From a virus: a stretch of 64,000 nucleotides of DNA. The stretch is taken from IMG/VR virus record IMGVR_UViG_3300029982_000012; one strand, 5' to 3'. The translations under genes and the position numbers were made by a program. The notes beneath the pieces were generated by a model. It did no database searches. It was given only the letters and a program-made list of their open reading frames with translations, and had not been told where the DNA came from. Below, piece after piece: positions 1,504 to 63,823 of this stretch (positions are counted from its first letter, which is position 1; each line of letters starts with the position of its first letter).

Positions 1504-1511
1504 TATATCAC
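1504..1511 (-). promoter_or_regulatory. RYGATATA motif (putative phage-specific promoter) for the groEL operon
   Basis: GTGATATA on the - strand 26 nt upstream of ORF 1477; the same motif recurs upstream of several other genes. Confidence 0.5.
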
Positions 1512-1521
1512 GAGAATTTAT

Positions 1522-1550
1522 TTGTATTTTAACATTTTTAGAGTTATATT
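1522..1550 (+). promoter_or_regulatory. sigma-70-type promoter (leaderless) for helicase
   Basis: TTGTAT-17 nt-TATATT ending 7 nt before GTG 1558; no SD. Confidence 0.6.
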
Positions 1551-1557
1551 CCTATAA

Positions 1558-3066: not shown

Positions 3067-3075
3067 TTAAAATCC

Positions 3076-3083
3076 ATGATATA
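3076..3083 (+). promoter_or_regulatory. RYGATATA motif upstream of the sigma-factor gene
   Basis: ATGATATA in the 51-nt gap, followed by an AAGGA SD. Confidence 0.5.
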
Positions 3084-3117
3084 TATCTTTTAAGACAGCA
3101 ACTTAAAGGAACATATT

Positions 3118-4155: not shown

Positions 4156-4157
4156 TG

Positions 4158-4186: not shown

Positions 4187-4202
4187 AATTTAAGGAGAAT
4201 AT

Positions 4203-4403
4203 ATGGAATCAGAATTACAAATTGATTTAGATTGTCTGAAAGAAGATATTAATTTGGGTAATGTTAGGTCCGTACCTGCCAAAACAGTTATGGCCCTAGT
4301 AGACCGAATTGAAAGGTTAGAATATTATCTTGAACAAGAAAAAGTGATCAATAAATCTTTTTCTGAAATGGTAAAACTTTTGAAGCATGGAGCAGAATTG
4401 TGA
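4203..4403 (+). CDS. hypothetical protein (66 aa)
   Basis: Strong SD; overlaps the next gene by GTGA. Confidence 0.7.
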   Translation: MESELQIDLDCLKEDINLGNVRSVPAKTVMALVDRIERLEYYLEQEKVINKSFSEMVKLLKHGAEL

Positions 4404-5950: not shown

Positions 5951-6263
5951 ATCCGAACCTACTAGCCTAAAAGACTTACGGAACCTCATGATGTTTTTTG
6001 GTCGTGTACCAGAAACGCACGTCAAGAATTTGCAATCACAACCTTTCATTTATTTCGATGGAGTCAAAGAAGCAAATGTTGATTACGATTTAGACACAAA
6101 AGCCAAAAGTTGGTTTGTTAAGTACGATCTTACTTTAGATAAAGAACCTGATTTCTTAACAGAAAGAAGTAAAGGGCTAGAAAAGGCCATTAGACTACTT
6201 TTTTGGAAAGAAGTCGTATTGCATATTGCAATAAACAATAAAGAGGTATATAAAAGTGAGTGA
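5943..6263 (+). CDS. hypothetical protein
   Basis: Packed ORF with GGAG SD and TTG start. Confidence 0.65.
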   Translation: MSESEPTSLKDLRNLMMFFGRVPETHVKNLQSQPFIYFDGVKEANVDYDLDTKAKSWFVKYDLTLDKEPDFLTERSKGLEKAIRLLFWKEVVLHIAINNKEVYKSE

Positions 6264-6960
6264 TCCGAAAGATTTATCCGTAATTCCACATAGCGATTTT
6301 ACCATGAGGGATCTTGAGTTGGTTGAGCAATTCAAAGAAGGGGGTATGCTCGGACTCCATACCTTAACAGACGTAGACGTAGAGAGAATGATGTCTCTTT
6401 ATATGGACGGTAAAAGTTACAGGCAAATTGCTGCTTTACTTAAGAAAAACAAGACGATAGTTCTTTTTTTAGCTCATAAATTCAAATGGTTTGAACTTCG
6501 CGCAGAATATTTAGACGAATTGCATGCGACCCTAAAGGGTAAAATTGTAGAGGCCAAATTACAGGATCAAGAATTTTTATTGCATTTAAGTCTTGCATAT
6601 AAGAAAAAAATAGGTAAAAATATAGATCAGTACTTAAGAACTGACAATTCTGAGTTTTACGACCAGATCAATAGTAGAGATCTAGGGACACTGATGAAAG
6701 TTATGGAAATGCTTCACAAATTAAATAGCGAGAATTTAGGCGAAAGACAGCCCCTTGTTGGTCTCAGTGGTATGAGTGAAGGTGTTAATATTACCAAAAC
6801 AGGCCCTAATTCTGTCGAAATTACTCCAAAACAGACACCATTTGCATCAAAACTTAAACAATTTGCAGAATTAAAGCGCGAACAAGAAAAACAAGAAGCT
6901 GCAGAAAAAAGTGATGATATAAACAAAGAGTCCGATAAAATAAAAAAAAGCAGAAAGTGA
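6256..6960 (+). CDS. HTH-containing protein (possibly terminase small-subunit-like)
   Basis: LYMDGKSYRQIAALLKKNKTIVLFLAHKFKW resembles an HTH followed by helical coiled coil. Confidence 0.5.
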   Translation: MSDPKDLSVIPHSDFTMRDLELVEQFKEGGMLGLHTLTDVDVERMMSLYMDGKSYRQIAALLKKNKTIVLFLAHKFKWFELRAEYLDELHATLKGKIVEAKLQDQEFLLHLSLAYKKKIGKNIDQYLRTDNSEFYDQINSRDLGTLMKVMEMLHKLNSENLGERQPLVGLSGMSEGVNITKTGPNSVEITPKQTPFASKLKQFAELKREQEKQEAAEKSDDINKESDKIKKSRK

Positions 6961-7844
6961 ATAGTAAAATGAATAAAATTGTGATTACCATCCTATTAGG
7001 ACTAGGAGTTGTCCTTATCCCCCACAACTCTATTTCCCAGGGAAAGAGTTCTCCAGATTTAACCCCCACTGTTACCCTAACAAGTAAAAATTTGCTTGTA
7101 TTGAGTGGTGAAGTAGATGGAGAAACAACTTCTGCTGTAATTTCAAGGGCTAAAGAACTTTGTGAAGTTAGTCAGGTTCAAAAATTGTTCGGAAAAAGAC
7201 CAAAACTTAAACTTTTTATCAATTCCCCAGGCGGAGGCATTCAACCTGGATTAGAAATGATTGAAGCTCTTAGGGGTACCGGTTGTCAAATCGATACAAT
7301 CACTACCTTTGCCGCAAGTATGGCTTTTCAAATTGTACAAAATCTGGATGACCGTTTAGTTCTTAAAAATGGCGTTATGATGAGTCACCACGCAGCCGGA
7401 GGCTTTGAAGGCTCTTTTGGTGGAGCTAAACCTTCACAACTAGATAGCCGGTATCAATTTTGGTTGGATCGTATTCGTGAACTTGATGAACAAACAGTAT
7501 CTCGTACCAAAGGAAAACAAACCTATGAAAGTTACCTTAAAGAATATGACCACGAGATGTGGTTAACTGGTACTAAATCGGTACAAGAAGGCTATAGTGA
7601 TGAAGTAGTACTGGTTAAATGCGATTCCAGTATTCAAGGTACTTCTAAGCATAGTTTGGATTTTATGGGAATTGCAATTTCTTATGAATTAGATAATTGC
7701 CCTCTAAATACTGCACCTATGAATATTAGTATGCTTCTTCCTCAAGGCAAGGAATTACCAACAGAAATTAAGAATGAGATTAAATCTAAGTTCTTAAATC
7801 AATTCTATAATTCTCAAAAACAAGAAATCCCAATGTACTGGTAA
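6957..7844 (+). CDS. clpP: ClpP-like (S14) serine protease with N-terminal signal/TM segment
   Basis: FINSPGG, FAASMA (catalytic Ser), MMSHH (His), EMWLT..SVQEGYSDEV; hydrophobic IVITILLGLGVVLIP at the N-terminus. ATGATATA at 6914-6921 upstream. Confidence 0.85.
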   Translation: MNSKMNKIVITILLGLGVVLIPHNSISQGKSSPDLTPTVTLTSKNLLVLSGEVDGETTSAVISRAKELCEVSQVQKLFGKRPKLKLFINSPGGGIQPGLEMIEALRGTGCQIDTITTFAASMAFQIVQNLDDRLVLKNGVMMSHHAAGGFEGSFGGAKPSQLDSRYQFWLDRIRELDEQTVSRTKGKQTYESYLKEYDHEMWLTGTKSVQEGYSDEVVLVKCDSSIQGTSKHSLDFMGIAISYELDNCPLNTAPMNISMLLPQGKELPTEIKNEIKSKFLNQFYNSQKQEIPMYW

Positions 7845-11806: not shown

Positions 11807-12472
11807 ATGGATACCAAACGAATACTTAGTATTGATCTCAGCACAAAAACAGGTTGGGCTTCAGTAATAAGTTCGGATGTGGGTATTGAATTGGAAGGTT
11901 ACGGTATGATTCCCCAAATTCCACAACCGAATGGTCCTTATCCATCATGTTTTATTGATTGGGCCTATTTGGTATTTAATGGTATAGAAGGACTTATAGA
12001 GAAATTTAGACCTGATATGCTTGCCATAGAAGAAACTGTGGCGGGATCAAAAGCAGTATATAGCCAAAAGATTTTAGAATATTCTCATTTTTTACTTGCT
12101 AAATACATAAAAGAGAATAATATAGAATCTATATACTTACTAACGGGCGCTTGGAGAAGTGAAGTTGGCTGCAAAATGACCAAAGAAGAATCTAAACATA
12201 ATAAGGAAGTTAGGGCCTATAAGACTAAACATGGCACCAAGTTAGCTCGTGATATAAACGGTAAGATTGTTGGTAAGTTAACCAAGAAGCATATCAATAT
12301 TAGGAGAGCAAATGAAGTGTTCGGTTCTTTTTTGAGAGAGCCTCTTAGAAAAAAGAATGAAGATGAAGCCGACGCACTTTTACTAGCGTTCGCACTACAT
12401 CTTAGAAGACTTAATAAAAATAAGTCTGAAGAAGTGACCATAGAAGAACTTTTAGAGAAAGATAAGTTATGA
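11807..12472 (+). CDS. RuvC-like Holliday junction resolvase
   Basis: ILSIDLSTKTGWA, LAIEE and DEADALLLA catalytic acidic motifs. Confidence 0.8.
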   Translation: MDTKRILSIDLSTKTGWASVISSDVGIELEGYGMIPQIPQPNGPYPSCFIDWAYLVFNGIEGLIEKFRPDMLAIEETVAGSKAVYSQKILEYSHFLLAKYIKENNIESIYLLTGAWRSEVGCKMTKEESKHNKEVRAYKTKHGTKLARDINGKIVGKLTKKHINIRRANEVFGSFLREPLRKKNEDEADALLLAFALHLRRLNKNKSEEVTIEELLEKDKL

Positions 12473-15054: not shown

Positions 15055-15062
15055 ATGATATA
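15055..15062 (+). promoter_or_regulatory. RYGATATA motif upstream of the 15088/15479 operon
   Basis: ATGATATA (here also reads as an extended -10, TGATATAAT). Confidence 0.55.
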
Positions 15063-15478: not shown

Positions 15479-15679
15479 ATGGAAAAAAAAGTAAGAGAAG
15501 AAGATGATTTCATCCATTCTCCAAAGTTCGGGAATAGCATCAAAAGATTTTTAGCAAAAATGGAAAATCCACCAGAAAATACAACCATTGGGCGACTCCT
15601 TTTACTTTCAGAAGAAGAAGTCGAAAAACTATACCAGGAATCAGTTGTAATCCTTCGAGAAAAAATGCTTAATAAATAG
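15479..15679 (+). CDS. stand-alone sigma region-4-like HTH protein (66 aa)
   Basis: Start ATG 15479. TTIGRLLLLSEEEVEKLYQESVVILREKM fits the sigma-4.2 pattern xEIGxLLxxSxxxVxxxxxxAxxxLRxxL. Confidence 0.55.
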   Translation: MEKKVREEDDFIHSPKFGNSIKRFLAKMENPPENTTIGRLLLLSEEEVEKLYQESVVILREKMLNK

Positions 15680-25444: not shown

Positions 25445-25459
25445 ATTCTCGAAAGAGAA

Positions 25460-25671
25460 CGTAAGCGGAGTGGAAAGCTGTGGGGACCGGACTTGGTTGA
25501 AATGACTACCAAGCCTAGCCTACTAGAGACACTCTCAGACAGCCAGACCTTTTACGGCGACGAGCAGAGCCATGATTGAAGAATCAGCGAAGTGACACTC
25601 GACGTGCTGAAGCCATACTTAACTTGAGTATGCTAGAAAATAAGGTTGCCAGAGTCGCGTCTGGCCTTACG
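25460..25671 (+). ncRNA. candidate structured, tRNA-like non-coding RNA or leader (~210 nt)
   Basis: Longest non-coding gap in the left arm and GC-richer than its flanks. Closing helix CGTAAG/CTTACG, D-arm-like GGAGTG-GAA...AGA-CACTCT, T-arm-like GCCAGA-gtcgcg-TCTGGC, plus several internal hairpins. Preceded by a TTCTC-GAAA-GAGAA GNRA hairpin at 25446-25459. Confidence 0.7.
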
Positions 25672-25690
25672 CTAAAATTAGGAGTCCGCC

Positions 25691-26596
25691 ATGATACAGG
25701 TTGATAGACCAGCACCAGAGAAACGCAAAATCAGTAGTAAAGACGATTTCGAATTATGTTACTTAAGACATCAGTATCTTCGTAAAGCTAAGGGCAATCC
25801 TAGTATTGAAGAGATGGCTCCTTACATGAAAATTGTTGAGAATCTCTCAAGAAAAACTTTCTTTACCTATTACAATCTGTTTAAAACCGTTGGGATGTAT
25901 CTAGATGACGTAACAAGCATTGGCCAAGTTCATTTGGTTTCTTTTTTAAATCTATTTACATTAGAAAAAATGGAAGAGAAAAACGATGAATGGATTGAAA
26001 AATGGCTGTTAAGACATGAAGGCAATCCTCCTGAACCTAAAGATTTCTTACAACAAAACAGGGCAAATTTTTCTATTTTTTATAAACAAAGAATGGAAGA
26101 TCTAGTAAGGATTTGTAAGAAAAAATTAAGAAATATTAAGGGTCAGTCATCAGAGGAATATTTGGCTTTTACAGGCAATTCTGAACTTCCACGATATCCA
26201 ACAAAATTAATTAAGAATTATGCGGATTATGGATTCAAAAAAATCGATTTTCCAACATTCAAATCAATTAGAAAAAAAGCGAATGTAAAAAACAGTGTAA
26301 CAGCCTTTCAATTCGATGAGTCCTGGTACATATGTTTTCCAATACAACAAAGGGATCTACAAATTGAAGATTTAATCGTTTCTGATGTCAATCCTTATTG
26401 TAATCTCTACAATAAACGCCCAGATCAGGTTTATAATGCCGATGAACTTCAAAAGTTCATGAATAGATTTGACAATAAGCCTAATGATAAAAAGGCGCTT
26501 ATTTTGAAGAAATTCATTGCAAAAAATAGAAATAAGAGCGAATATAGAAAAGAAGTGTCTACAGCCAAAAAACTTCTAAAATCAATCGGGGCGTAA
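25691..26596 (+). CDS. hypothetical protein, possible divergent sigma-factor-like (region 2)
   Basis: PYMKIVENLSRK...GMYLDDVTSIGQVHLVSFL...ANFSIFYKQRMEDLVR resembles sigma regions 2.1-2.4; AGGAG SD. Confidence 0.45.
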   Translation: MIQVDRPAPEKRKISSKDDFELCYLRHQYLRKAKGNPSIEEMAPYMKIVENLSRKTFFTYYNLFKTVGMYLDDVTSIGQVHLVSFLNLFTLEKMEEKNDEWIEKWLLRHEGNPPEPKDFLQQNRANFSIFYKQRMEDLVRICKKKLRNIKGQSSEEYLAFTGNSELPRYPTKLIKNYADYGFKKIDFPTFKSIRKKANVKNSVTAFQFDESWYICFPIQQRDLQIEDLIVSDVNPYCNLYNKRPDQVYNADELQKFMNRFDNKPNDKKALILKKFIAKNRNKSEYRKEVSTAKKLLKSIGA

Positions 26597-31423: not shown

Positions 31424-31452
31424 TTGTATTTAACACAATAGCGTGCTAGTAT
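31424..31452 (+). promoter_or_regulatory. sigma-70-type promoter (leaderless)
   Basis: TTGTAT-17-TAGTAT, 6 nt before ATG 31459. Confidence 0.6.
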
Positions 31453-31458: not shown

Positions 31459-32046
31459 ATGGCCGAAGAACATAAATTTCTTGAAATAGAATGCAAGTAT
31501 AATGGAGATGACATCAACCGCATCGCCTTTAAGGATTTGGCCAAAAGTTTAAACCCTAAAAGTTTTATCTATGTAGAATCCAAAGATGTCTACTATGTCA
31601 GACAAGAAAACGAATTTCTAAGGTATAGAATGGCCGCCGAAAATAAAATGGGTGGTGAAGACGAACATCGTTCAGAACTTACTTTTAAAAAGAAACATAT
31701 TGATCAAAACAATTGGGTTCGCACTGAAGTGAATTTGAGAATTGACAAGAATGATCCAGCATTAATCGTAGCGTTTTGCGAAGGACTTGGTTACATTAAA
31801 AATTTTAGTATCGATAAGGCCTGCGATATCTACTTCTTTGATGATGCAGACATTGTTTATTATACCGTAAAGAATGAAGATGGCAAATACGCTACATTCG
31901 TTGAGATTGAAGCCGGTGAAAATATCGGAATGACCACAGAACAAGCTTGGGAAGTCATTTTAAAGTACGAAAAACTACTTGCCCCACTCGGTATTACGGC
32001 ACAAAAGAGAAAACGACTGTCTCTATTTGAGATGTATAAAAAGTAA
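31459..32046 (+). CDS. CYTH domain protein (class IV adenylate cyclase/triphosphatase fold)
   Basis: EIECK (ExExK), DVYY, LRYR, ELTFK, RTEVN, FVEIE. Confidence 0.85.
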   Translation: MAEEHKFLEIECKYNGDDINRIAFKDLAKSLNPKSFIYVESKDVYYVRQENEFLRYRMAAENKMGGEDEHRSELTFKKKHIDQNNWVRTEVNLRIDKNDPALIVAFCEGLGYIKNFSIDKACDIYFFDDADIVYYTVKNEDGKYATFVEIEAGENIGMTTEQAWEVILKYEKLLAPLGITAQKRKRLSLFEMYKK

Positions 32047-35019: not shown

Positions 35020-35080
35020 TTTGGCTTGGACCATCATCGCATTTTTTGTGATTAGTGCCTTCGTATTATTTTTAGGCTAA
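35009..35080 (+). CDS. putative 23-aa membrane micropeptide
   Basis: MITDLAWTIIAFFVISAFVLFLG; last ORF of the + arm. Confidence 0.45.
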   Translation: MITDLAWTIIAFFVISAFVLFLG

Positions 35081-35848
35081 TCTGTAAGTCCAAAAATCTT
35101 CTGCCAAATTGGGATTTGTAACGAAACTATAGGGTAAATAAAAATAACCTTTATCTCCCCAATCTGCTCCCCAACTATTTCTGCATATTAGCCAACTGTT
35201 TTTATCATCGAAGCCAACGCAAGTAATTTCGTGACCTCCTTGACAACTTTCAGAAGGTAAAGGAAGAGGCACTTTCCCAGTTTGAGCTACTTGTTCGCTT
35301 TCAAATGAATCATAGACATCAATGCCCATGATAAAAGGGTAACCATTGGCCAAACAATCCTTCATTTGATCCAAACTAACAATTCTAAAATTATCTTTGA
35401 TTTTATTGTTTGCTGCGCTTTTATAGCAATCATCTGAGGGCTTAACCGTCATATCATTATTGGTATAAGGCCACATACTTTCTGGGCAGACCCCATATTG
35501 GCTTAAAGCAAAAATGATATCTCTTAATTCCGCTCCAGAATCTTGCTGAACCGTATTCTCATCTGTACGCTCGTTATAGTAAACAAACTGCCTACTACCA
35601 GGAGCAAATACCGATAAGGGATCTACGTGTGGGTTTACAATTCTTATATTTTTTAATTGAAGAAAATCGTAAACACCAGATACAGATGCTTGGGCTGTAC
35701 AACTACCTTCTTGGCCCTGATCTACAACTGGGGGACAAAGATGTCTTAAGTCAACCAATGAAGGCAATGATCCTTGAAAACTATTCTGGTAAATAGGATC
35801 TGAAATATTCTTTGAATCTTTCATCCGAGAATAGTTGTATTTTTTCAT
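35072..35848 (-). CDS. papain-like C1A cysteine protease
   Basis: LPSLVDLR, DQGQEGSCTA (Cys), GGHEITCVGF (His), RNSWG (Asn); likely start 35848. Confidence 0.92.
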   Translation of the reverse strand: MKKYNYSRMKDSKNISDPIYQNSFQGSLPSLVDLRHLCPPVVDQGQEGSCTAQASVSGVYDFLQLKNIRIVNPHVDPLSVFAPGSRQFVYYNERTDENTVQQDSGAELRDIIFALSQYGVCPESMWPYTNNDMTVKPSDDCYKSAANNKIKDNFRIVSLDQMKDCLANGYPFIMGIDVYDSFESEQVAQTGKVPLPLPSESCQGGHEITCVGFDDKNSWLICRNSWGADWGDKGYFYLPYSFVTNPNLAEDFWTYRLA

Positions 35849-35852
35849 ACAA

Positions 35853-38258
35853 TTATTGATAGAACTCTTCAACAGCAATATAACCTGATCCACCGTTACC
35901 ACCAGTTTGGCCACTAGTACCCGCTCCGCCCCCATTTCCGCCAGCACCAACTGCATAACTATATGTTCCTGATGGATTATTGATAATCGCTACTATCCCT
36001 CCACCTGATCCTCCGCCGCTTCCAGTGACTTGATTAATTATATTGTTACCGCCTCCGCCTGAACCACCACCACCCGTATTGGATGGAGCATTGATGCCTG
36101 GGTTTGCAGAATATACTTGAGCGGCTCCACCACCGAGCATTGAGGATCCTCCAATACCGCCAGATAAGACCACTGTAGTCCCACTATCCGACATTGCACT
36201 ACCACCGCCGCCACCCGTTACTGCTACAACTTGAACGGCTGGACTTGAAACCGTAACAGTTCCACCAGTTGCCCCAGGAGAACCATAAACTCCTTGGATA
36301 CCTCCATTGGCTGTCAATAAACTTGTTCCGAATGTAGTAGTACCGCCAGCTGTGGCAACTGAACCAGTTGCTGTTCCGCTACCGGCTCCGCCACCACCAC
36401 CGCCTACCATTGTTACTTTGATATATAGTGGAGTTCTTGGAGAAGTAGGAGTAGTATATGTTCCAGAACCTGAAGTAAATTTTTGAACTGTTGGTGCTGT
36501 AAGATTTGCATTACTTAGAAGTCCAGTAATAGTTGTAGCAGTTCCTACTGAACCGTTAGCATAGTATTCTGTTACTTCTATGTAACCAGAGCCACCTGCT
36601 CCACCTGCGCTCATACTGGTTCCTGCTGTACCACCTGTACCCGCTGTGCCAATTGAGTAAGAATAGGTTGCTGAAGGTGCTAGGATAATAGCTTCAATAT
36701 AACCACCTGCTCCACCACCTGATCCTGCGTATCCAGTAGCACTTCCGGTACCGCTGCCACCACCGCCAGAACCAGTATTAGCTATTGCTGCAAATCCTAC
36801 AGCACCGGTTGCGCCACCCGCTTGAGATCCACCTTGACCACCGAAAGGTGATGCAGCTCCAGATCCTCCAGGTTGTCCTGTAGTTGCGTTTCCTATACCT
36901 TGGCCTGATCCACCTTGAACTGCGACAACTTGTAACACAGTAGAACTACTTGTTACAGTTGCTGTGCCACCTGGGCCACCACCACCAGTACCAACGCCGC
37001 CACCAGTACCACCGACTGCTGTCAATAGACTTGTTCCGAATGTAGTAGTACCACCTGTACCGCCTGTACCAGCGTTTTGTGTGCTCGCGAGTTCCGATCC
37101 ACCTCCGCCACCACCACCGCCAACTAATTTAACTTGTATGTAAATTACGTTTGCTGGAGTGGTATATGTTCCTGATCCAGATAAGAATTTTTGAACTGTT
37201 GGGGTATAAGCTCCGCCACCATTTGCTGCCGCAGCAGTTGGAGCATAAAATTCAGTAACGATAACGACACCGCTACCACCAGCAGCACCTGCGTCGGCAC
37301 CACCACTAGCTGCACCACCTGCTCCACCACCACCAATTGAATAAGCGTAAGAGGCTAAAGGAGAAGTAATAATGGCTTTGATGTAACCACCAGCACCGCC
37401 TCCGGCACCACCACCAAAGGAACTACTACCACCTTGTCCACCGCCACCAGAACCTGAGTTAGGTATACCGGGAGTAGGAGAATTTACGCCCGTGCCTGGA
37501 ACTGTATTGTTAAGTCCACCGCAACCTGCGCCGCCAAATGGAGTAACTCCACCGTTACCTCCGCCTGACGCTCCAGTTGCTCCGAATATCGATTGTGGAT
37601 TACCAGAGCCTCCTTGCAATGCTATCAATGCTACCGCAGGAGAATTTACAGTTACTGTACCACCGTTTGATATTCCGCCTGAGCCTGCTCCTCCACCGTT
37701 CGCGCCACCACCACCATTAGCGGTTAATAAACTTGTTCCGAAAGTAGTCGCAGAACCATTGCTACCGGCGTTTGATGAACCGGCATTTTCTCCACCACCA
37801 CCACCACCAACCATTTCAACTTGAATGAAGAGAACGTTTGCTGGAGTAGTATATGTTCCAGAACCTGATAAAAATCTTTGAACTGTTGGAGAATACGGAC
37901 CTGCACCTGCTGCTGCAGAAGATGAAAGAACTGCCCAAGTACCTGCAGACGTAGCATTAGTTTGAAGAACGATGAAAAGGGATGTGTGTGCTGCAATGGT
38001 ACTGTAATTTGTTCCAAATGCATCGGTGAATGCTCCGCCGCCGTTAAACTCTAAGGTAAGGTTTCCAGTTGATTGATTGAATATTTCGTATTTTTGACCA
38101 ACGACCATTGTAGTCGCGTTAGGCAAAACAATAGTTTGGGTTGTTGAACCCGTAAAAATTTCAATTTGTTTTGAGGTATTGACTAGCGTAGTTGTACCAG
38201 CCGCTGTTGCGGTGATTGCGATCTGCTCTACTAAGCCTCCGAGTTGGAACGTAGCCAT
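35853..38258 (-). CDS. glycine-rich tail fibre/virion protein with three tandem Gly-rich domains
   Basis: Three copies of PTVQxFxSGSGTYTTP...VGGGGGG...GGSGxxxVxEY; AAGGAG SD. Confidence 0.8.
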   Translation of the reverse strand: MATFQLGGLVEQIAITATAAGTTTLVNTSKQIEIFTGSTTQTIVLPNATTMVVGQKYEIFNQSTGNLTLEFNGGGAFTDAFGTNYSTIAAHTSLFIVLQTNATSAGTWAVLSSSAAAGAGPYSPTVQRFLSGSGTYTTPANVLFIQVEMVGGGGGGENAGSSNAGSNGSATTFGTSLLTANGGGGANGGGAGSGGISNGGTVTVNSPAVALIALQGGSGNPQSIFGATGASGGGNGGVTPFGGAGCGGLNNTVPGTGVNSPTPGIPNSGSGGGGQGGSSSFGGGAGGGAGGYIKAIITSPLASYAYSIGGGGAGGAASGGADAGAAGGSGVVIVTEFYAPTAAAANGGGAYTPTVQKFLSGSGTYTTPANVIYIQVKLVGGGGGGGGSELASTQNAGTGGTGGTTTFGTSLLTAVGGTGGGVGTGGGGPGGTATVTSSSTVLQVVAVQGGSGQGIGNATTGQPGGSGAASPFGGQGGSQAGGATGAVGFAAIANTGSGGGGSGTGSATGYAGSGGGAGGYIEAIILAPSATYSYSIGTAGTGGTAGTSMSAGGAGGSGYIEVTEYYANGSVGTATTITGLLSNANLTAPTVQKFTSGSGTYTTPTSPRTPLYIKVTMVGGGGGGAGSGTATGSVATAGGTTTFGTSLLTANGGIQGVYGSPGATGGTVTVSSPAVQVVAVTGGGGGSAMSDSGTTVVLSGGIGGSSMLGGGAAQVYSANPGINAPSNTGGGGSGGGGNNIINQVTGSGGGSGGGIVAIINNPSGTYSYAVGAGGNGGGAGTSGQTGGNGGSGYIAVEEFYQ

Positions 38259-38271: not shown

Positions 38272-38811
38272 TTACAGATATTTGAATCTGAATCCTTTTG
38301 TATGTGAATAAATATTGTTACAAACTTTACTTACTGCAGATGGGTCCAAGCCCAAATATTTGGCCGCATTATTGGCAGAAACGTATTTCCTAGAATCATT
38401 AAAGCAAAGAACAGGTTTTGCACTACCAGAACTTTTACCCCAATTTGGATGCTTGGTTTTATCTGAAAGCATTTTTTTTCTAGATTCAGATTGTTTTCTT
38501 TTTGTTTCTTCAGAGCGTATTTTGTTTTTCCCACCTGATTCAGCATTGTATCCATTTGGAACTAAACTATTGAATTTATTAATATAAAATTGTTCTTTTT
38601 TATTTAAATCTTCCAAATCAACTGCCCTATCTACAAAATAAAAGTCAAAATTTTCAAATCCGTAACTAGCAACGGCATTATGGAACGGTAAATTATTGGT
38701 TCTTTTAGAGGCAGCATATTTATGCTCTCTAATGCGTTCGTTCAAACTCCTAATGGTTTGTCCTATATACGCCTTACCGTTAATTTTATTAACCGCTCTA
38801 TAAATAATCAT
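38272..38811 (-). mobile_element. free-standing GIY-YIG homing endonuclease gene (NUMOD3/NUMOD1-like)
   Basis: IIYRAVNKINGKAYIGQT, GYN, SEETKRKQSES, C-terminal HTH; AT-richer than flanking structural genes. Confidence 0.85.
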
Positions 38812-38830: not shown

Positions 38831-38845
38831 TATATCATAAGATTG
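38831..38845 (-). promoter_or_regulatory. overlapping CAATCTTA and ATGATATA motifs
   Basis: CAATCTTATGATATA on the - strand upstream of the GIY-YIG gene. Confidence 0.6.
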
Positions 38846-38852: not shown

Positions 38853-39902
38853 TTATTGAAATCCGGCAAGTTGCCATGCAACACGATAATTATTCGTATC
38901 TACGGGCATATTCCATTTAACGGTAAAGGTCGTAGTAGTCTTGTTTGTCACAGTAATTGGTTGAAATTGTGGGGTAGCGTCGGTATAATTAGCCAATTCT
39001 GCAGTAACTACATAACTACTTGAACTCATGGGAACATTTAAAGTAATGGTAGCCGTTACTTCGCCCATAGTTAAAGGAAATTCCCCTACTTGCTCGATTG
39101 TACCGGCACCAACTAAATAATCGAGTTTGTAATTTGCCGTATCTAGAGGCATATTCCAGGTAGCAGTGAATCCCGTAGTTGTTTTGTTGGTAATTGTAAT
39201 CGGCTGAAATTCTGGATCAGGATCAGTAGTATTTACCAATTGTGCGATTACCACATAGGTATTACTGCCTTGAGGAGTAACAAAAGTAACATTTACAGTA
39301 GTAGTACCTTGGCTTAGAGCGACCTCATTAGCTGCTCCGCCTCCGCCACCACCTGATCCGCCTCCACCAACAAATTGAAAAATAGTGCTTTGGGTAATAT
39401 TTTGAATGGTTCCAGCATTATTAAAAATTGTAATATATGCAAATGGAAGAGTGCTATTTAAAGGAGTGGGAATTGCTGCATCTGCCGCAATAGCATTAGG
39501 AGTACCAGTAGTAGCAATTAAATTACCACTTTGATCCAGGGATAAAAGAACTTGCATGTACTCATTTGATGGCAAAGTAAGTAATGTAGAGCCCCCAGTT
39601 GAAGTCGTAATATTTCCACCGCTAGCAGAAGGAAAAGTTACTGTTCCAGAAGCGAAAGCAGGAATAACATTATTAATAAAAGAGATTGATCTATTTCTAT
39701 TGGATTCAGGATTTGAAACAATAGCTGGTCCAATATCTACTACTAGACTTGGAGTGCTTGTTGCATCAACTCTAAGTGGCACAGTAAGATCTGCATTAAT
39801 TGAAGCAAGTAAAATATCTAAGGTTTCACCGGCAACATATGGGAATAGTTGCTGGAGGATCCCTCTATACTCTATCTGTCTTGCATCTAACTCGATACTC
39901 AT
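38853..39902 (-). CDS. virion structural protein with two C-terminal lectin-like beta repeats
   Basis: Two copies of NxTDxxPxFQPITxTNKTTTxFTxxWNMPxDTxNY; the same module ends the 39920 gene product. Confidence 0.75.
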   Translation of the reverse strand: MSIELDARQIEYRGILQQLFPYVAGETLDILLASINADLTVPLRVDATSTPSLVVDIGPAIVSNPESNRNRSISFINNVIPAFASGTVTFPSASGGNITTSTGGSTLLTLPSNEYMQVLLSLDQSGNLIATTGTPNAIAADAAIPTPLNSTLPFAYITIFNNAGTIQNITQSTIFQFVGGGGSGGGGGGAANEVALSQGTTTVNVTFVTPQGSNTYVVIAQLVNTTDPDPEFQPITITNKTTTGFTATWNMPLDTANYKLDYLVGAGTIEQVGEFPLTMGEVTATITLNVPMSSSSYVVTAELANYTDATPQFQPITVTNKTTTTFTVKWNMPVDTNNYRVAWQLAGFQ

Positions 39903-39910: not shown

Positions 39911-39918
39911 TATATCAC
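39911..39918 (-). promoter_or_regulatory. RYGATATA motif 8 nt before ATG (leaderless)
   Basis: GTGATATA in the 17-nt gap. Confidence 0.5.
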
Positions 39919-44247: not shown

Positions 44248-44255
44248 TATATCAT
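44248..44255 (-). promoter_or_regulatory. RYGATATA motif downstream of a terminator
   Basis: ATGATATA directly after the terminator U-tract. Confidence 0.55.
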
Positions 44256-47094: not shown

Positions 47095-47102
47095 TAAGAT
47101 TG
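47095..47102 (-). promoter_or_regulatory. CAATCTTA putative late promoter
   Basis: Exact motif shared by five - strand gaps upstream of genes in the virion region. Confidence 0.65.
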
Positions 47103-50569: not shown

Positions 50570-50611
50570 TAAGATTGTCATTAAGGTTATATCGTATTAA
50601 CTTGAATCTTA
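50570..50611. promoter_or_regulatory. divergent promoter region: CAATCTTA (-, 50570-50577), ACGATATA (-, 50588-50595), AATCTTA (+, 50605-50611)
   Basis: Motifs read directly between divergent ORFs 50551(-) and 50639(+). Confidence 0.6.
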
Positions 50612-51299: not shown

Positions 51300-52052
51300 T
51301 TACTCAGTAATCCAATATTTGGCGTAGGGATTGGTTACTTTAGGTTGATAATAAATTTGACAAACATCAGTCATGCCTAAAGGATAAGCGTTATAAAGCC
51401 TTCTAAGCCATATTTTAGAAGCTAACCAACAAAGAAGACTTGTGGGGGCAGTCGCCTGAATTAAGTGCCAAGCAAGTCTCCTAGCATCGGTATTTCCAAC
51501 ATCGGTACCCATACAACTTAAGGCTATTACAAATGCAGCGTACCAATAAAATAAATGGGCGCTTAATCTGGCAAGCCAATGTAACGGATTCCATAGACTG
51601 GGAAAGGCTCCAGAAACCATACATGCTACTAATTGAGGCTGTCTGAGTAACCAGGCGTCCCAATTCCCGATATGGCCTGGATTGGTGCTATCCATAAAAC
51701 CCAAATATTTTATCATTGCCAAAAGGAATTTGCGAGGAATTTTAGTATTTCTTAAATTTTTACATCCTGAAAGCACGCCATAATAATCGTCAACCGACTC
51801 CAATGAATCGATCTGAGTGACAGGAACTCTATTTAAAATTCCTTGTGGAAAAATACACTGCTCGATTTTTTGATTATAGTCAATTTTGTCCTGATCGCTT
51901 AACATGCTATTTTTTGCAAGAATTACGTAGTATTCTGCAGTGAAACAGGTGCCATTATCCGAACCCTTACCTGTTGATGGTTGAGATTGTGGGTTTGGGG
52001 CCATTAAACCGTTTCCATCGATATAAATACAAAAATCAGAACGAAGTGTCAT
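51300..52052 (-). CDS. hypothetical protein (250 aa, Trp-rich hydrophobic C-terminal half)
   Basis: ORF with CAATCTTA 7 nt upstream of its ATG. Confidence 0.7.
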   Translation of the reverse strand: MTLRSDFCIYIDGNGLMAPNPQSQPSTGKGSDNGTCFTAEYYVILAKNSMLSDQDKIDYNQKIEQCIFPQGILNRVPVTQIDSLESVDDYYGVLSGCKNLRNTKIPRKFLLAMIKYLGFMDSTNPGHIGNWDAWLLRQPQLVACMVSGAFPSLWNPLHWLARLSAHLFYWYAAFVIALSCMGTDVGNTDARRLAWHLIQATAPTSLLCWLASKIWLRRLYNAYPLGMTDVCQIYYQPKVTNPYAKYWITE

Positions 52053-52059: not shown

Positions 52060-52067
52060 TAAGATTG
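52060..52067 (-). promoter_or_regulatory. CAATCTTA putative late promoter (leaderless)
   Basis: Ends 7 nt before ATG 52052. Confidence 0.65.
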
Positions 52068-52083: not shown

Positions 52084-52112
52084 TTGTCAAATGCCTATAT
52101 GTCAGGTATTAT
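52084..52112 (+). promoter_or_regulatory. sigma-70-type promoter
   Basis: TTGTCA-17-TATTAT, then GGAGGT SD. Confidence 0.65.
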
Positions 52113-52130: not shown

Positions 52131-52559
52131 ATGAACTATTATTCAATCATTTTTTCTGCAGCAAAGGCTGCTAAGGTATCGGGACTGCTTCTCTACGCAA
52201 TCTGTGGATACGAATCAAACGATTTCACCCAAACGTATGTAGCCCAAGATCACGGATCTCCAAGTGTAGGAATCTGTATGGTGAAATTAAATACAGCTCA
52301 GATGCTTGGCTATAAAGGTACATTGGTAGATCTACAAAAACCAGAAGTTAACGCAAAGTATGCTGCTCTTTATTTGAAATACCAACAAGATCGTTATGGA
52401 TCTGATGATTGGTGTAAAATTTCTGCCGCTTATAATTCGGGAAGTTTCCTTGAAAGTAAGAAGGCTCCAGGAAAACCAAAAAATCTAGAGTATGTAAAAA
52501 GAGTTCAGAAAAAACTTGCCGAGGACATAAGAGACAAGTTATCATGTGATAAGGAGTAA
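52131..52559 (+). CDS. lytic transglycosylase (SLT domain)
   Basis: AICGYES (catalytic Glu), GICMVKLNTA, PEVNAKYAALYL, SAAYNSG, YVKRV. Confidence 0.85.
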   Translation: MNYYSIIFSAAKAAKVSGLLLYAICGYESNDFTQTYVAQDHGSPSVGICMVKLNTAQMLGYKGTLVDLQKPEVNAKYAALYLKYQQDRYGSDDWCKISAAYNSGSFLESKKAPGKPKNLEYVKRVQKKLAEDIRDKLSCDKE

Positions 52560-52560
52560 T

Positions 52561-53244
52561 ATGAGATATTTCACTTCAGATCCCCACTACTACCATAAAA
52601 ATGTCATTAGATATTGTAACCGCCCATTCACCAGGAATGTCGATAAATTAACGGAACTAACTGGTGGATTTGCTCCAGCGTTTGAACTTAATTTGGCTAT
52701 CGAAAGAGATGTCGTGGAAATGAATGGGGCTCTCATAGCTAATTGGAACTCAATAGTGACTCCAGAAGACGAGGTTGTTGTAGTTGGAGATTTTTCCATG
52801 GCTTTGAGGCCTGTTGAACTATATACGAATCGCCTCAACGGGCGTAAAATTCTCGTTGCTGGAAATCACGATTTTTGTCATCCCGCACATAAAAAATCCA
52901 AGAATCCAGAAAATCAAAAGAAGTGGACCGACAAATACCTATATTGGGGATGGTCTGAAGTACACCTAAAAATGGAATTAGATCTTCCCGGTATTGGTTT
53001 GGTCAATGTATCTCATATGCCATATAAAGGTGGAAGCGATTCAGGTGACGAAGAACGTCACGAAAAGCATCGATTGGATGATGACGGAAAAATTCTTATT
53101 CATGGACATATTCATGAAAAAGGATTGATTACAAGATCCCGTAAAGGAACCTTACAGTTAAATGTAGGCGTAGATGTTTGGGGCATGAAACCAGTTTCTG
53201 AAGAAGAAGTAATTAGGGCTATTTTAAATGCAAAAAGAAATTAA
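52561..53244 (+). CDS. calcineurin-like metallophosphoesterase
   Basis: TSDPH, VGDFS, AGNHD, SHMP, HGHIH, NVGVD. Confidence 0.9.
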   Translation: MRYFTSDPHYYHKNVIRYCNRPFTRNVDKLTELTGGFAPAFELNLAIERDVVEMNGALIANWNSIVTPEDEVVVVGDFSMALRPVELYTNRLNGRKILVAGNHDFCHPAHKKSKNPENQKKWTDKYLYWGWSEVHLKMELDLPGIGLVNVSHMPYKGGSDSGDEERHEKHRLDDDGKILIHGHIHEKGLITRSRKGTLQLNVGVDVWGMKPVSEEEVIRAILNAKRN

Positions 53245-53788
53245 GCCAATTGAAATTTTCACTTCTTTGGATTTGGAGATGAACAATAAAGAAGGCAAGA
53301 AGATCATTCAGATTGGTGCTGTTGTGGGGAATATCACGACAGGCGAAATTTTAGAAACACTATCCATAATTGTAAACCCTAAAGAGCAACTTACCGATTT
53401 CATAATTGGACTTACTGGAATCACTCAAAATGATGTTGACAATGGCGTAACTTTAGAAGAAGCTTATTTAAAATTAAAAGAAATGCATTTAAGACACAAA
53501 AGTTTTATTAATTGTATCACTTGGGGCGGAGGAGACTCACACGAACTTGCAGAACAACTCCTGAAAGAGAATCCAAATTTTACGGGCTGGTATTTTGGGC
53601 GTCGTTGGATTGATGCAAAAACCTTATTTGTGTCATGGCGTTTTGCAAACGGCCAACCTATTCAGGGTGGTCTTGCCCGAAGTATGACAAAAGTTGGACT
53701 AAAATTTAAAGGTCGTAAACACAACGCTCTAGATGACGCCACAAATACGTTCCATATGTATAGAGCGATGCTTGGAAAACTTAAATGA
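53228..53788 (+). CDS. DEDDh 3'-5' exonuclease (ERI-1/KapD-like)
   Basis: LDLEM, LTGITQ, TWGGGD, FKGRKHNALDDA. Confidence 0.88.
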   Translation: MQKEIKPIEIFTSLDLEMNNKEGKKIIQIGAVVGNITTGEILETLSIIVNPKEQLTDFIIGLTGITQNDVDNGVTLEEAYLKLKEMHLRHKSFINCITWGGGDSHELAEQLLKENPNFTGWYFGRRWIDAKTLFVSWRFANGQPIQGGLARSMTKVGLKFKGRKHNALDDATNTFHMYRAMLGKLK

Positions 53789-54249
53789 GTAAATTGGTTA
53801 GACTTCTAAAGCTTGCCCACTCAATTGAAATTGGTGCGTACCATGCCTATGAGGGTCACTGGCGTAACACCAAAGATCCGACAACACGAAAGAGATTGCA
53901 AGAAATCCAAGAGGAAGAGAATTTCCATAGGCAGCAAGTACGCTTCATGCTCAGCGAAGTAAAATCTAGTCCCAATTTCTTTCTAGATTTTTCCATGTAT
54001 TTGGTGGGGAAATCGGTATCTGTATCTTGCTATGTTATGGGATATAAAGCAGCAATGTGGGGAGCCAAGATCTTTGAAATATTAGGTTCAAACATTTACC
54101 GAAAATTGTCGAGAGAGGCTTTTAAGGAAGGACACTGTTTTATGTCCAATCTTTTATACAAAATGAATAGGACTGAATTAGAGCACGAAGAGTTCTTCAG
54201 AACGTGTCTTATGAAAGGTCAAGAGGCCAAAAAAGTACTTGACCCATAA
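53785..54249 (+). CDS. ferritin-like di-iron protein (Coq7/demethoxyubiquinone hydroxylase-like)
   Basis: AHSIEIGAYHAYEGH...EEENFH...FE...TELEH, i.e. E, ExxH, E, ExxH di-iron ligands. Confidence 0.7.
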   Translation: MSKLVRLLKLAHSIEIGAYHAYEGHWRNTKDPTTRKRLQEIQEEENFHRQQVRFMLSEVKSSPNFFLDFSMYLVGKSVSVSCYVMGYKAAMWGAKIFEILGSNIYRKLSREAFKEGHCFMSNLLYKMNRTELEHEEFFRTCLMKGQEAKKVLDP

Positions 54250-62500: not shown

Positions 62501-63763
62501 GATGGTCTCAATGGCAACACCGGTATGGGTTGCTTCTAATCCAGCCCCATTATCAATATAGACAGTAGTATTTGTAGCCGAATTCAATACGTCCGTACTT
62601 ACAATTGTGTCTGATCCAGTTGGGTCTTGGACTCCTTGAAGAGCGGATTCAATTGCGGTAACGGTACCTAGACCGGTAGAAGCTAAAGCATTCTTGATGT
62701 TGATTCTTAATTCGTCATCTGTTTCAGTATCTAGCCCTGTAGTAATACCAAGCGGATTTGTTACAAAGGCATTTGGAAGACCGGTAGGATTCCCAGAAAA
62801 TTCAGAGATTGCACCTGCAGGAACATTCGCTGCGGATCCCGGTAAGACGGCGACGATTGGAATATTGGTTACAGTCGTTTCTCCATCTAAAATAATTCCA
62901 CTTTGGGTTACAGAATATTGAATATCTGGAGTTGTTCCAATTCCTGGACTAATTACTATAGTGTTTACTGGTACGGTTCTAACGCCACCTTGGGAAAGAA
63001 TCACTGTCTCGCTGATATTATGAAATTTTGTAGTTGGACTATCTAATGTTATTTCCCAAAAACTTCCAATTTGAACTGGTGGGGCCTTATAAGTAAATGC
63101 AGTACCATTGGTCGATGCCGTATTGCTGATATGGATCTGACTTGAAGAGTCAATAGAAGAAATTGTTGTTCCAGTTGGGATTCCGGCTCCAAAGACAGTA
63201 AATCCTACTAGTAAATTGGCCGTAGAAGGGATTCCTGAAATAATATTGGACGCTATAGAACTAACTCCAGTAAATCCAGTAGAGTTCGCTCCATAAGAAA
63301 TGGGACCTTCTACGTTAACACTTCCTCGACCGATATAAATTGCGCCTGTGGCAGGAAAGGAAGAGGCATTACTTACAAAAATAGTGGTAGAGCCAGCGAT
63401 TGGGGGATTCGCTCCTGCATAAATTAGAGTAGATATTTTTTGAAAAGAAAGATCGGTAACTGTTACGAAACTCGTAGCAGCGGAAGCTCCAACAACCGGA
63501 ACATTGAATTCGGCGGCCAAATTCTTTAAAGCTGGTCCAGTAGCACGATCTAGGTTGTAATCTCTTAAAATCTGGAATATGTCCCCACTTGCACGGGCTA
63601 CCATAAGAGCAACAACTTTAAAGAAACTTACGTTTGCCGACCCAATGTTTAGATCGTTGATCCCCAATGCAGACGCATAACTACTCGATGATTGACCAAG
63701 TAAGTCTTCATAGGACTGGGGCTGTGGTAAAGACGAACTTGGGGGAGTTGGGCTAGTTGCCAT
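56591..63763 (-). CDS. giant baseplate J-like (gp6-like) wedge protein, 2390 aa
   Basis: LDRATGPALKNLA, PGSAANVPAGAI, VTNP..ITTGLDTETDDELR, GTVTAI; C-terminal NPLGQSIDLSSIV...IPGVISV. Confidence 0.85.
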   Translation of the reverse strand: MATSPTPPSSSLPQPQSYEDLLGQSSSSYASALGINDLNIGSANVSFFKVVALMVARASGDIFQILRDYNLDRATGPALKNLAAEFNVPVVGASAATSFVTVTDLSFQKISTLIYAGANPPIAGSTTIFVSNASSFPATGAIYIGRGSVNVEGPISYGANSTGFTGVSSIASNIISGIPSTANLLVGFTVFGAGIPTGTTISSIDSSSQIHISNTASTNGTAFTYKAPPVQIGSFWEITLDSPTTKFHNISETVILSQGGVRTVPVNTIVISPGIGTTPDIQYSVTQSGIILDGETTVTNIPIVAVLPGSAANVPAGAISEFSGNPTGLPNAFVTNPLGITTGLDTETDDELRINIKNALASTGLGTVTAIESALQGVQDPTGSDTIVSTDVLNSATNTTVYIDNGAGLEATHTGVAIETIVNSALGGEKFFQLVTGGEQTSVTKAFLQTVALEPFALSGGEVLTVVVGNITYEHTFASTDFANPGSATAYEVCASINADTLLNFEAVTAGGGTYVVIRPEDEVTNKIQVTTPASSSVTDANSVLEFPSQIAETLRLYKNGKLLTEDGSTASIFTQEQSLWSPTLASGETLSIGVDGTSPITYTLTDADFVAEGTYTTLSYSNSLQSWVNVLNSVVSGITASIVGSTIEITSNLGAIDRAQINIVNTLYTPITGPGVLTKVSGSGDASISYSTFLQLSDGQYAFTVSSTNATAGATYTNNGATFTVGVTISGGTLLVVSTPASNPTSLIAKGVISISDLFSKGVASDYILDRNTAQIELVTALVAGDSLSAGTPVTQANIESSAISSGSLTLSSDAHIWISIDTNAVLIPTIISGSLLSVTLVGSNTVRYTSNSSSAFSNVLPGDYVIVWSPQVPSGDQLEGRVHANTGSTLDIKVTAAEYAIASASANNSYISGFAVVRTSNVPQKFRVQAGTKTLNAIAIELQTQTDQLQFNIIDNTNITITSNSDDLNGQITVVTSDTAGSLLNFKSGLNSVSQSALIAYYETQSAQAELPLFFHSTISSDSYAEPIDTYVTNFSSAISVSSFDPNELIQFLNPYGIVPGTILDDEQPSGETVQMSETAGSAITILPEYPDVRRLRVADRFYIANPLDFGYNDSVVVIVDNNTLGETYTLPLYRNALVNSTYAINNYSFNAYDTATGPTASFSTNFTGFDFSNFKALLQAKYVLQGSNTQTALLYRSTAWGASGEYINVSYVYPSSANQAINSSISVTSANNVSVQISLASGNPITTNISSNTKWNVTITPNTPTAGIDQVTYNWAGQYTFTVSSANATAGATYVSSNGQNFTVTTTIAGGTTLVSTGSNGAPPASGTLTKTSGTGDTTITFSSFSFSGTGTSPALTLSGGEYVTILPSTGFNVNNTGTFRISTAAGFAPTSTSFTVQRPDGVAVAQTNVTTSVLNGIYFYQSSPTTAAQINTYVNANLSNYFTTTIVNDGGTSGSGIIVLSTYEDSGFTIPFYFLKDGINWIANDGQYVFAVGAANATVGAVYTTFNSNNQLQYFTVTSSISAGTSLTTTGSIGTPPASGVLTKVSGSGVGDTTIAYSSIGVTPQFTFKKPLTYPSDTGYSFNAGDTVVLVPTTMDQVQKFWSILAVTGFTTVGNVEVSDRGTHLQLATNTVGSVGSIQIVGGSGNEYVVPVLTSGELLGNNEMIFSANSIASQAVASDQWFRAAAQNYQNKNTGFSSNTSVTVLSNTPISGESTVILENQTADQLYFGSPRNYVRVEGDTFRIEKQGSLACLSWNGVGSSPNFSTNLNFNDSGGWTLNVSATGTYTVASGNTNFSELSIGDLVTVTGAANAGNNGTFFVEGLTGNSFTVSNPNAVAESGTAIAAGAFTSTSSVSEGDSVILASPFSPLNQGTYRVIRMFNNSIWYENDNAIEEEITCVVNPISTGYDSTSVFNVVTSLGTQELVWTGTGTPPNLQNVLPGDVVTFGTGFNIDNQGSFMVTNSGPSQVQITQFTMPAGSTFSSSGAADYFELYNGGNSNQYYVWFNVSGGSNTDPAPVGFTGIEVTINASDSSTTVANELYNALNGHLTAINVSVASNVVTATNTVSAATNSPVDVSMPAAFSFVVTQTGQESFLTVISPEAVNQSSMSAVTFSVSRPQIQFFQYDATIPGDKLVINGSVLGTGNAGTYEILEVLSPTTAIIAGVVSTQYNTNLSTNSVSLSVQEGKVYTGYKQVAYISPQPGTTNFNNIVLNTSAQYDKINLSANVGLTSLGKLNFPTTFRSGIDSYNFDIGLIGEANRVIYGDPRDSITYPGVNAAGTDIFIREPLLKNIQISLAIRTNIGVSFAQITSQIQSTVYALIQSNPLGQSIDLSSIVEAVRAIPGVISVVITNPAYTVASDEIQLVTGEKAFIANQISDISVSLIGS

Positions 63764-63782
63764 TTAAAAACCTCTTATACAG

Positions 63783-63823
63783 TAAGATTGAGGGTATGTA
63801 AGTCCTCGTATATATTATATCGC
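63783..63823 (-). promoter_or_regulatory. CAATCTTA (63783-63790) and GCGATATA (63816-63823) upstream of baseplate J
   Basis: Motifs read directly in the gap; GAGGT SD follows. Confidence 0.6.

Follow-up and report, generated by a model that had tools for sequence, protein, structure and literature searches.

The subject of this work is a window of 64,000 nucleotides (nt) from the virus record IMGVR_UViG_3300029982_000012 (IMG/VR), comprising bases 29794-93793 of a 114.5-kb viral contig, in which we have found two phage-specific promoter classes lacking a -35 element, CAATCTT(A) and TGATATA, alongside a few canonical promoters. TGATATA is the core of the longer motif RYGATATA, and CAATCTT(A) is the class to which CAATCTTA belongs. 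The best-supported part of our interpretation is a transcription programme dependent on the core enzyme of the host, in which a phage sigma factor (named 3118 after its first position) would be made from a TGATATA promoter and would read the conserved late box, and a small protein (15479) possibly stands in for sigma-4. Taken as a whole, the explanation that we consider best, and to which we give an even chance, is a late system in which the phage has no polymerase of its own and retargets the host core enzyme by its own sigma-like proteins.

The phage is a large myovirus of the Mx1 group and an uncultured relative of Myxococcus phage Mx1 (OR576727). Mx1, its nearest cultured relative, has a circular genome of 170 kb with a GC content of 55%, and the two have in common the gene order helicase-sigma-phosphoesterase, with 39% identity in the sigma factor and 32% in DnaE. 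To our knowledge, no work on transcription in the Mx1 group has been published. The genome announcement of Mx1 is silent on the matter (PMC10720576). For the comparison of boxes we used this genome (G000) and three complete relatives (G001, G002 and G003), the proteins of G001 and G002 being about 50-64% identical to those of this phage; no phage record matched 6 kb of the window in a search at the DNA level. A plus-strand block of the window holds genes for a helicase, the sigma factor, a phosphoesterase, ClpP, an SbcC-like protein, a DnaQ-like exonuclease, a DnaE-type polymerase, a UvsX-like recombinase and a DnaB-like helicase, the minus-strand block consists of tail, baseplate and fibre genes, and head, portal and terminase genes lie to the left of the window.

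All 14 copies of RYGATATA and all 6 of CAATCTTA that a first-pass annotation had placed in the window were recovered, and these counts are not above those of shuffled sequences (8.6 and 4.0, respectively). In the 114.5-kb contig, of which about 4% of the bases are non-coding, 14 of the 15 copies of CAATCTTA were wholly intergenic (p 6e-19), as were approximately 13 of the 25 copies of RYGATATA, and the intergenic boxes of both classes lie on the same strand as the next gene, 5-66 nt upstream of its start. In an unbiased scan of 8-mers, CAATCTTA topped the intergenic enrichment in G000, G001 and G002 (p 1e-16 to 1e-19). A variant, CAATCTT[TA]A, precedes large structural genes of G003, and CAATCTTTA counts as a variant of the late box. 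The enrichment of CAATCTT in Mx1 itself is weak, with 6 of 32 copies being intergenic (p 0.02) and two lying 6 nt 5' of an ATG. TGATATA is enriched in G000, G002 and G003.

The two classes precede different genes. CAATCTT(A) was found upstream of virion-block genes only and persists in relatives with a protein identity of about 50%; in the window its five intergenic copies all precede minus-strand genes of that block (tail, baseplate and the GIY-YIG endonuclease heading the fibre unit). Behind TGATATA boxes lie the groES-position gene with GroEL, ClpP, sigma 3118, the operon 15088-15479-DnaQ-DnaE and several genes of the virion; certain of these virion genes carry both boxes, as is the case for the genes starting at 38811, 50551 and 63763. 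In each of the four AT-rich genomes (G000-G003) the 3118 orthologue has a TGATATA box upstream, and in G000-G002 the 15088/15479 operon has one too. Thus the claims of the first-pass annotation that RYGATATA precedes groEL (1504), the sigma gene (3076), clpP (6914) and the 15479 operon (15055), and that the second motif precedes virion genes, several of them with both motifs, were borne out. Its proposal that host promoters drive the replication genes was not: the polymerase operon has a TGATATA box, and canonical TTGnnn-17-TAnnnT promoters are enriched only about 1.7-fold between genes, with the same leaderless peak at 5-7 nt.

Three observations on related words may be added. The sole copy of CAATCTTA within coding sequence lies on the minus strand at 12262, inside gene 11807-12472, 6 nt from GTGATATA on the plus strand (the pair spanning 12249-12269), which may be accidental or may mark an internal or antisense promoter. 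G001 has an intergenic repeat of about 25 nt in 12-13 copies (loci L248-L256) with the words GTGATACGGATGGCAGAAAAG and TTAGGTGA, which may be a version of the middle promoter or another repeat. In G003 (loci L273-L281) the top intergenic k-mer comes from tandem 9-nt words, (G/C)AAAATAAG-nAAATAAG, with about 20 intergenic copies.

In both classes the boxes fall into two groups by their distance from the start codon. Over the four genomes, 15 of 57 CAATCTT sites lie 5-8 nt from the start, none at 9-15 nt and the rest at 16 nt or more, and 15 of 44 TGATATA sites lie at 6-9 nt, none at 10-17 nt and the rest at 18 nt or more. This distribution is as expected of a -10-type element with the message beginning 6-8 nt downstream. 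Genes with a box directly before the start codon have no Shine-Dalgarno sequence, which fits leaderless messages from the short-distance sites and a leader with a Shine-Dalgarno sequence from the long-distance ones. Counted from the leaderless starts, CAATCTT occupies -13 to -7 (CAATCTT(A) about -13 to -6), so that the hexamer AATCTT keeps the A at -11 and the T at -7, and TGATATA occupies about -15 to -9, which is the register of an extended -10 element (TGnTATA); the A at -13 of the TGATATA sites is fixed by the construction of the search. No base conservation near -35 was seen at any position in either class. In sigma-70 promoters the T at -7 is normally among the best-kept positions of the -10 element. 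In the TGATATA class it is not preferred over the other bases (A15 C12 G9 T12 in 48 sites), which argues against the primary sigma as the reader. Since their spacing varies, from overlap to 25 nt, and their order is sometimes reversed, the two boxes are independent promoters, and a -35/-10 pair with fixed spacing was rejected. Divergent gene pairs have one box for each direction.

Protein 3118 is a sigma factor that stops before the helix-turn-helix of region 4.2, as does its counterpart in Mx1, in agreement with the truncated sigma that had been read from the sequence. It has 558 homologues (clustered at 90% identity), the Mx1 group being widely distributed in metagenomes from soil, peat and freshwater, and their profile found region 2.1-2.2 of numerous PDB sigma factors (E 2e-3 to 1e-2); the protein also matched a PHROG sigma family at 3e-5. 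Pfam gave nothing useful for 3118 and its homologues at E up to 10, nor did searches of the whole contig with Sigma70_r2 and Sigma70_r4 give a match. In the AlphaFold2 (AF2) model (pLDDT 76) the best 50 Foldseek matches listed were all sigma factors, nearly full-length to primary sigmas, with E 1e-4 and probability 1.00 against sigmaA, HrdB and sigma70. Domain 2 together with region 1.2 was superimposed on Taq sigmaA domain 2 by the VIA structure comparison with Z 11.7 and a root-mean-square deviation (rmsd) of 3.3 over 148 residues, and residues 223-288 form the sigma-3 part. The alignment of the last helices (310-340) stops at Taq sigmaA residue 391, in the first part of sigma-4 and, as we take it from the size of that protein, short of the region 4.2 helix-turn-helix. 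The C-terminal end LPLINQKVLRLKGIEI, with the pattern LP...KVLRLKG, was present in 16 of 16 aligned homologues and in Mx1, and it marks the junction of region 4.1 with the 4.2 helix-turn-helix. A sigma factor without region 4.2 would be unable to recognize a -35, which agrees with the lack of one in these promoters. The 66-aa gene beside 3118 (4203-4403) was considered as the missing sigma-4 and rejected, having no homologue in the relatives.

A candidate for that part is the acidic protein 15479, for which 275 family representatives were found at 50% identity; the best 150 of these are stand-alone proteins of about 60-130 residues, with two longer exceptions. It is present in all four of the other genomes examined (the three complete relatives and Mx1), invariably beside DnaQ/DnaE. 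A narrow profile found nothing in the PDB, and Pfam gave no hit at E up to 10. A broad profile of 46 members gave hits below significance (E 0.12-0.45), at its positions 36-73, to NarL and to region 4.2 at the very C-terminus of FliA, WhiG and further sigma factors; this stretch takes up where 3118 leaves off. For the recognition helix, the sequence here is EEEVEKLYQES and the family consensus EEEVExxYxxA, without the basic residues that would contact -35; an acidic helix of this kind makes the reading of DNA unlikely. A predicted complex of 15479 with residues 225-345 of 3118 lends weak support to binding at the 3118 C-terminus: its ipSAE was 0.37 against 0.00 for the best control, on a scale where 58 of 80 solved complexes, and 2 of 110 mismatched pairs, attain the mark and where values of 0.60 or less include 7 of the 80 solved complexes and both mismatches. 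The three runs agreed in at least 77% of contacts, with a partner pLDDT of at least 65.

The third protein, 25691, which had been called sigma-like, resembles sigma-2 by fold and not by sequence, and the likeness is suggestive. In its AF2 model (pLDDT 77), about 20 of the top 50 rows of a VIA-wide comparison of residues 34-145 were sigma-2 domains (Z 4.6-6.3), among them SigE-N (Z 6.3), pro-sigmaK (Z 5.9, rmsd 2.0 over 74 residues), sigma70, sigmaB and sigma28. Foldseek returned no match at E up to 0.001, and neither Pfam (E up to 10) nor PHROG gave a hit. A homologue is found in all four other genomes. In Mx1 it reaches 541 aa (147212-148837, locus L271), and only the sigma-2-like N-terminal part is conserved; the C-terminal half of that homologue has CxxC zinc-ribbon-like motifs. 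We tried to assign 3118 and 25691 to the two boxes by cross-genome identity and abandoned the attempt, the differences being too small to decide.

In the mechanism that we propose, the first of the two boxes to be read would be TGATATA, its reader being 25691 or else the host sigma, which would take it for an extended -10. Protein 3118, made from its TGATATA promoter, would then direct the core enzyme to the CAATCTT(A) late promoters by its sigma-2 domain alone, in the manner of T4 gp55, and 15479, made from the polymerase operon, would replace sigma-4 on the beta flap without contacting DNA, in the manner of T4 gp33. One may join these parts into a replication-linked late switch, with 3118 (regions 1.2-4.1) completed by 15479 as a detached, non-DNA-binding region 4.2, leaderless late messages arising from the CAATCTT box, and the fast-evolving 25691, with no more than a sigma-2 domain, setting a middle class (TGATATA here) that differs between relatives; that all of this holds together we regard as rather unlikely. 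Several points weigh against the proposed mechanism. The timing is inferred and the reader of each box a guess, and the estimated completeness of the contig is 71%. The Z values of 5-6 obtained for 25691 are in a range that the tool calls common for helical domains, its profile found no sigma factor in the PDB, and its alignment to the 3118 family by hhalign had a probability of 0.1. The first-pass annotation had seen in 15479 a sigma-4-like protein, which stands as far as the weak region 4.2 matches go; these matches are below significance, no sigma-fused form occurs among the best 150 of the 275 representatives, and an accessory protein of replication would account as well for a gene that always lies beside DnaQ/DnaE. 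TGATATA is not present in Mx1. A perfect TTGACT is found at a spacing of 17 bp from two TGATATA-type boxes, one before RNA copy 3 (described below) and the other before a gene outside the window with its start at window coordinate 79703, showing that the class shades into extended -10 promoters of the host type.

These last points are also what favours a programme of two tiers only, to which we would grant a real, if less than even, chance. TGATATA would here be the extended -10 (TGnTATAnn) of the host primary sigma, CAATCTT(A) alone would need the phage sigma 3118, and 25691 would be no sigma factor at all; a phage factor, possibly 15479, may first disable -35 recognition, as do P23-45 gp39 and T4 AsiA. 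The register of TGATATA relative to the leaderless starts is exactly that of an extended -10, two of its sites have a consensus -35 at 17 bp, its absence from Mx1, with a GC-rich host, is as expected of a host-dependent signal, and 25691 is without a sequence link to sigma factors. There is also a precedent in Thermus phages, in which the host enzyme uses late promoters of the extended -10 class once sigma-4 has been shifted by gp39 (PMC4124052, PMC3950348). However, the indifference at -7 in 48 TGATATA sites speaks against such a reader, TG and TATA are far better kept than in the canonical promoters of the same genomes, and the sigma-2-like 25691 is conserved in all five genomes. The three-tier sigma cascade that had been put forward thus keeps its two -35-less classes, its late box confined to virion genes and its placing of 3118 and 15479 behind TGATATA, kept in relatives, and is weakened by the chance that the host sigma reads TGATATA.

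That the boxes act on RNA instead of DNA, as processing sites or as binding sites of a translational regulator near start codons, is very improbable. Both are strand-specific and close to starts, some only 5-8 nt from the ATG, but the empty zone at 9-15 nt and the sharp peak at the length of a discriminator fit a transcription start and not a ribosome-site signal. Divergent gene pairs with one box per direction, the resemblance of the boxes to -10 hexamers, and the canonical -35/-10 matches of the same genomes, which peak likewise at 5-7 nt, all point the same way. Exceedingly improbable, in our judgement, is a divergent phage RNA polymerase that escaped detection and reads one or both boxes, whether encoded in the missing 29% of the contig or among the proteins of unknown function. 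Incompleteness and several large proteins without a family match leave some room for it, and Pfam models can miss very divergent phage polymerases, a reservation that also bears on our own proposal. The first-pass annotation had named a multisubunit polymerase encoded by the phage as the finding that would overturn a sigma cascade, and none was detected: the Rpb1 (PF00623) and T7-type (PF00940) families had no match in this contig, in four 100%-complete relatives or in the circular Mx1 genome, Rpb2 (PF00562) had none in this contig, to which that search was limited, and a DxDGD-type catalytic motif occurs in no open reading frame of five genomes. The large proteins in question are located in the virion block, and two sigma-like proteins would have no purpose without a host core enzyme. 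The proposed retargeting of that enzyme by phage sigma-like proteins remains the reading that we prefer.

Upstream of 25691 lies a structured RNA, as does the uvsX operon. It belongs to a multi-copy, independently transcribed family of tRNA-like outline, of which about 40 distinct instances with a common layout were found in viral contigs. From its 5' side it consists of a closing stem of 6-7 bp, CG, GCGUG-GAAAG-CUGUGG, a variable hairpin and CCACUGGAGACACGC, followed by a variable part, a hairpin with the loop AGU(C/A)GCG and the closing strand; a small GNRA hairpin (25446-25459) is directly 5' of it. The folding energy of 25459-25672 alone is uninformative (z -1.6). Covariation over 18 sequences, with the closing stem placed by complementarity and the last hairpin placed otherwise, gave 97% of cells paired and 16 of 23 pairs changed on both sides, and 0 of 500 shuffles did as well. 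Rfam yielded no hit at the gathering score in the window and 16 related loci, and nothing plausible at E up to 10; a tRNA search of the RNA with ARAGORN found no gene. A known riboswitch, the cobalamin box, RNase P, tmRNA, 6S, Y RNA and retron RNA were considered by eye and rejected, there being no Rfam match.

It had been suggested that this RNA is an element at the first switch of the cascade. The RNA exists and its covariation is strong, and in seven loci it lies directly upstream of a 25691 homologue. However, a covariance model found three copies in this genome, two of them outside the window, and a single copy in G001 and another in G003, both a long way from the 25691 homologue; no copy was detected by it in G002 or Mx1. 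With three paralogous stand-alone copies, and others remote from that gene, the RNA is not a switch element tied to 25691. Seven further loci (L004, L010, L011, L013, L014, L019 and L021) have, about 200 nt upstream of the 25691 homologue, a GC-rich structured region without the GUGGAAAG/GGAGACACG core, closed by a TTGGCGG...CCGCCAA stem and bearing a terminal hairpin and loops of the sequence GGTTCGAnTCC that resemble a T-arm, possibly members of a wider RNA superfamily. A nucleotidyltransferase of the phage's own genome (L246:14639-15649, minus strand; PHROG 388, E 4e-70) may be a CCA-adding enzyme, and the tRNA-like RNAs of the same genome have no encoded CCA end.

Table 1. Genes, promoter boxes and RNA copies discussed in the text, in window coordinates.
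Feature	Position	Strand	Remarks
groES-position gene, 85 aa	1220-1477	-	paired with GroEL (1-1233)
TGATATA-class box	1504..1511	-	before 85-aa groES-position gene (1220-1477) and GroEL (1-1233)
TGATATA-class box	3076..3083	+	34 nt upstream of the 3118 start; matching box before 3118 orthologues of three complete relatives
Sigma-70-family protein 3118, 345 aa	3118..4155	+	regions 1.2, 2, 3, 4.1; ends ...QKVLRLKGIEI
TGATATA-class box	6914..6921	+	within preceding gene, 35 nt 5' of clpP
TGATATA-class box (TGATATAAT)	15055..15062	+	heads 15088-15479-DnaQ(15683)-16351-DnaE(17123) operon; kept in G001, G002
Acidic protein 15479, 66 aa, candidate detached sigma-4 or co-activator	15479..15679	+	C-terminal half resembles sigma region 4.2 helix-turn-helix
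Structured RNA, about 212 nt, tRNA-like outline	25459..25672	+	within 246-nt GC-rich gap 5' of 25691
Protein 25691, 301 aa, candidate second specificity factor	25691..26596	+	sigma-2-like N-terminal helical domain (34-145), small alpha/beta domain, C-terminal three-helix part
Host-type promoter TTGTAT-17-TAGTAT	31424..31452	+	6 nt 5' of ATG at 31459; leaderless geometry
Overlapping CAATCTTA and TGATATA boxes	38831..38845	-	before GIY-YIG endonuclease/fibre/papain-like protease unit (38811 downwards)
TGATATA box	39911..39918	-	8 nt 5' of ATG at 39902; leaderless geometry
TGATATA box	44248..44255	-	before 1431-aa virion protein gene (start 44215)
CAATCTTA late box	47095..47102	-	before 913-aa tail protein gene (start 47046)
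TGATATA-class (ACGATATA) and CAATCTTA boxes	50570..50595	-	before 979-aa gene (start 50551)
CAATCTTA box	52060..52067	-	7 nt 5' of ATG at 52052, without Shine-Dalgarno; leaderless geometry
Canonical host-type promoter TTGTCA-17-TATTAT	52084..52112	+	before small-gene block 52131-54249
GCGATATA and CAATCTTA boxes	63783..63823	-	before 2390-aa baseplate/fibre gene (start 63763)
RNA copy 2	75813-76015 (L246:12607-12809)	+	covariance model
RNA copy 3	83418-83579 (L247:13212-13373)	-	consensus TTGACT-17-TATATT promoter ends 7 nt before stem

Among the neighbouring genes, clpP (6957-7844, plus strand) was recognized by a Pfam CLP_protease match, and just 5' of it a 234-aa protein (6256-6960, plus strand) with a weak HTH_38 match (E 7e-4) could be a further regulator. 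The fibre gene unit is headed by a GIY-YIG homing endonuclease with an HNH-like tail (38272-38811, minus strand), before which both promoter boxes are present. It is followed by an 801-aa fibre-like gene (35853-38258, minus strand), in a region with a GC content of 50% against 38% in the surroundings, and by a papain-family cysteine protease downstream of it (35072-35956, minus strand).

Timed sigma programmes are textbook knowledge for T4 and SPO1, and very few phage groups have been worked out. If the proposed system is true, it would provide a sigma factor that nature has divided between regions 4.1 and 4.2, a large family of sigma-4-like proteins that are detached from any sigma, and compact promoters of 7-8 bp that make leaderless messages, and orthogonal promoter and sigma parts could follow. 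Late transcription in T4 uses the sigma factor gp55, the co-activator gp33 and the clamp gp45 at the box TATAAATA. As in T4 late promoters, CAATCTT(A) is a single 8-bp box at -10, without a -35 and before late genes only, and the phage sigma has no DNA-reading sigma-4; by analogy, the separate small acidic protein 15479, the gene of which lies among replication genes, could occupy the flap. The gp45-dependent activation complex of T4 (7d7d chain F) was itself among the fold matches of 3118 (Z 6.8). Unlike gp55, 3118 is far more complete (regions 1.2, 2, 3 and 4.1) and matches primary sigmas nearly full-length, the sequence of the box differs, and many messages here would be leaderless. Compared with Mx1, the sigma factor has the same truncated end and homologues of 25691 and 15479 are present in both phages, whereas Mx1 has no TGATATA class and no detected copy of the RNA.

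The promoters of SPO1 have both -35 and -10 elements, in contrast to the single box here, and 25691 is only a candidate for the middle factor. The likeness to SPO1 would be that a later sigma gene lies behind an earlier promoter class, as 3118 and 15479 lie behind TGATATA in three to four genomes. In the SPO1 cascade (gp28, then gp33/gp34) the late specificity factor is in two parts (bioRxiv 10.64898/2026.10.01.756105). Sigma-2 and sigma-4 functions are also found on separate polypeptides, both of which bind RNA polymerase, in SigO-RsoA of B. subtilis and Sig7-8 of Tn916 (PMC10141391; bioRxiv 10.64898/2026.10.01.756105). In those pairs the genes are adjacent and both -10 and -35 are read, whereas 11 kb separate the two genes here, the division is within region 4 (4.1/4.2) and there is no -35. 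The Thermus phages P23-45 and phiYS40 have leaderless, -35-less extended -10 promoters, and gp39 acts at the interface of sigma-4 and the flap (PMC4124052, PMC3950348). They use the host sigma-A and have no phage sigma, in contrast to the phage described here, which encodes a sigma factor of its own and has a late box that is not an extended -10.

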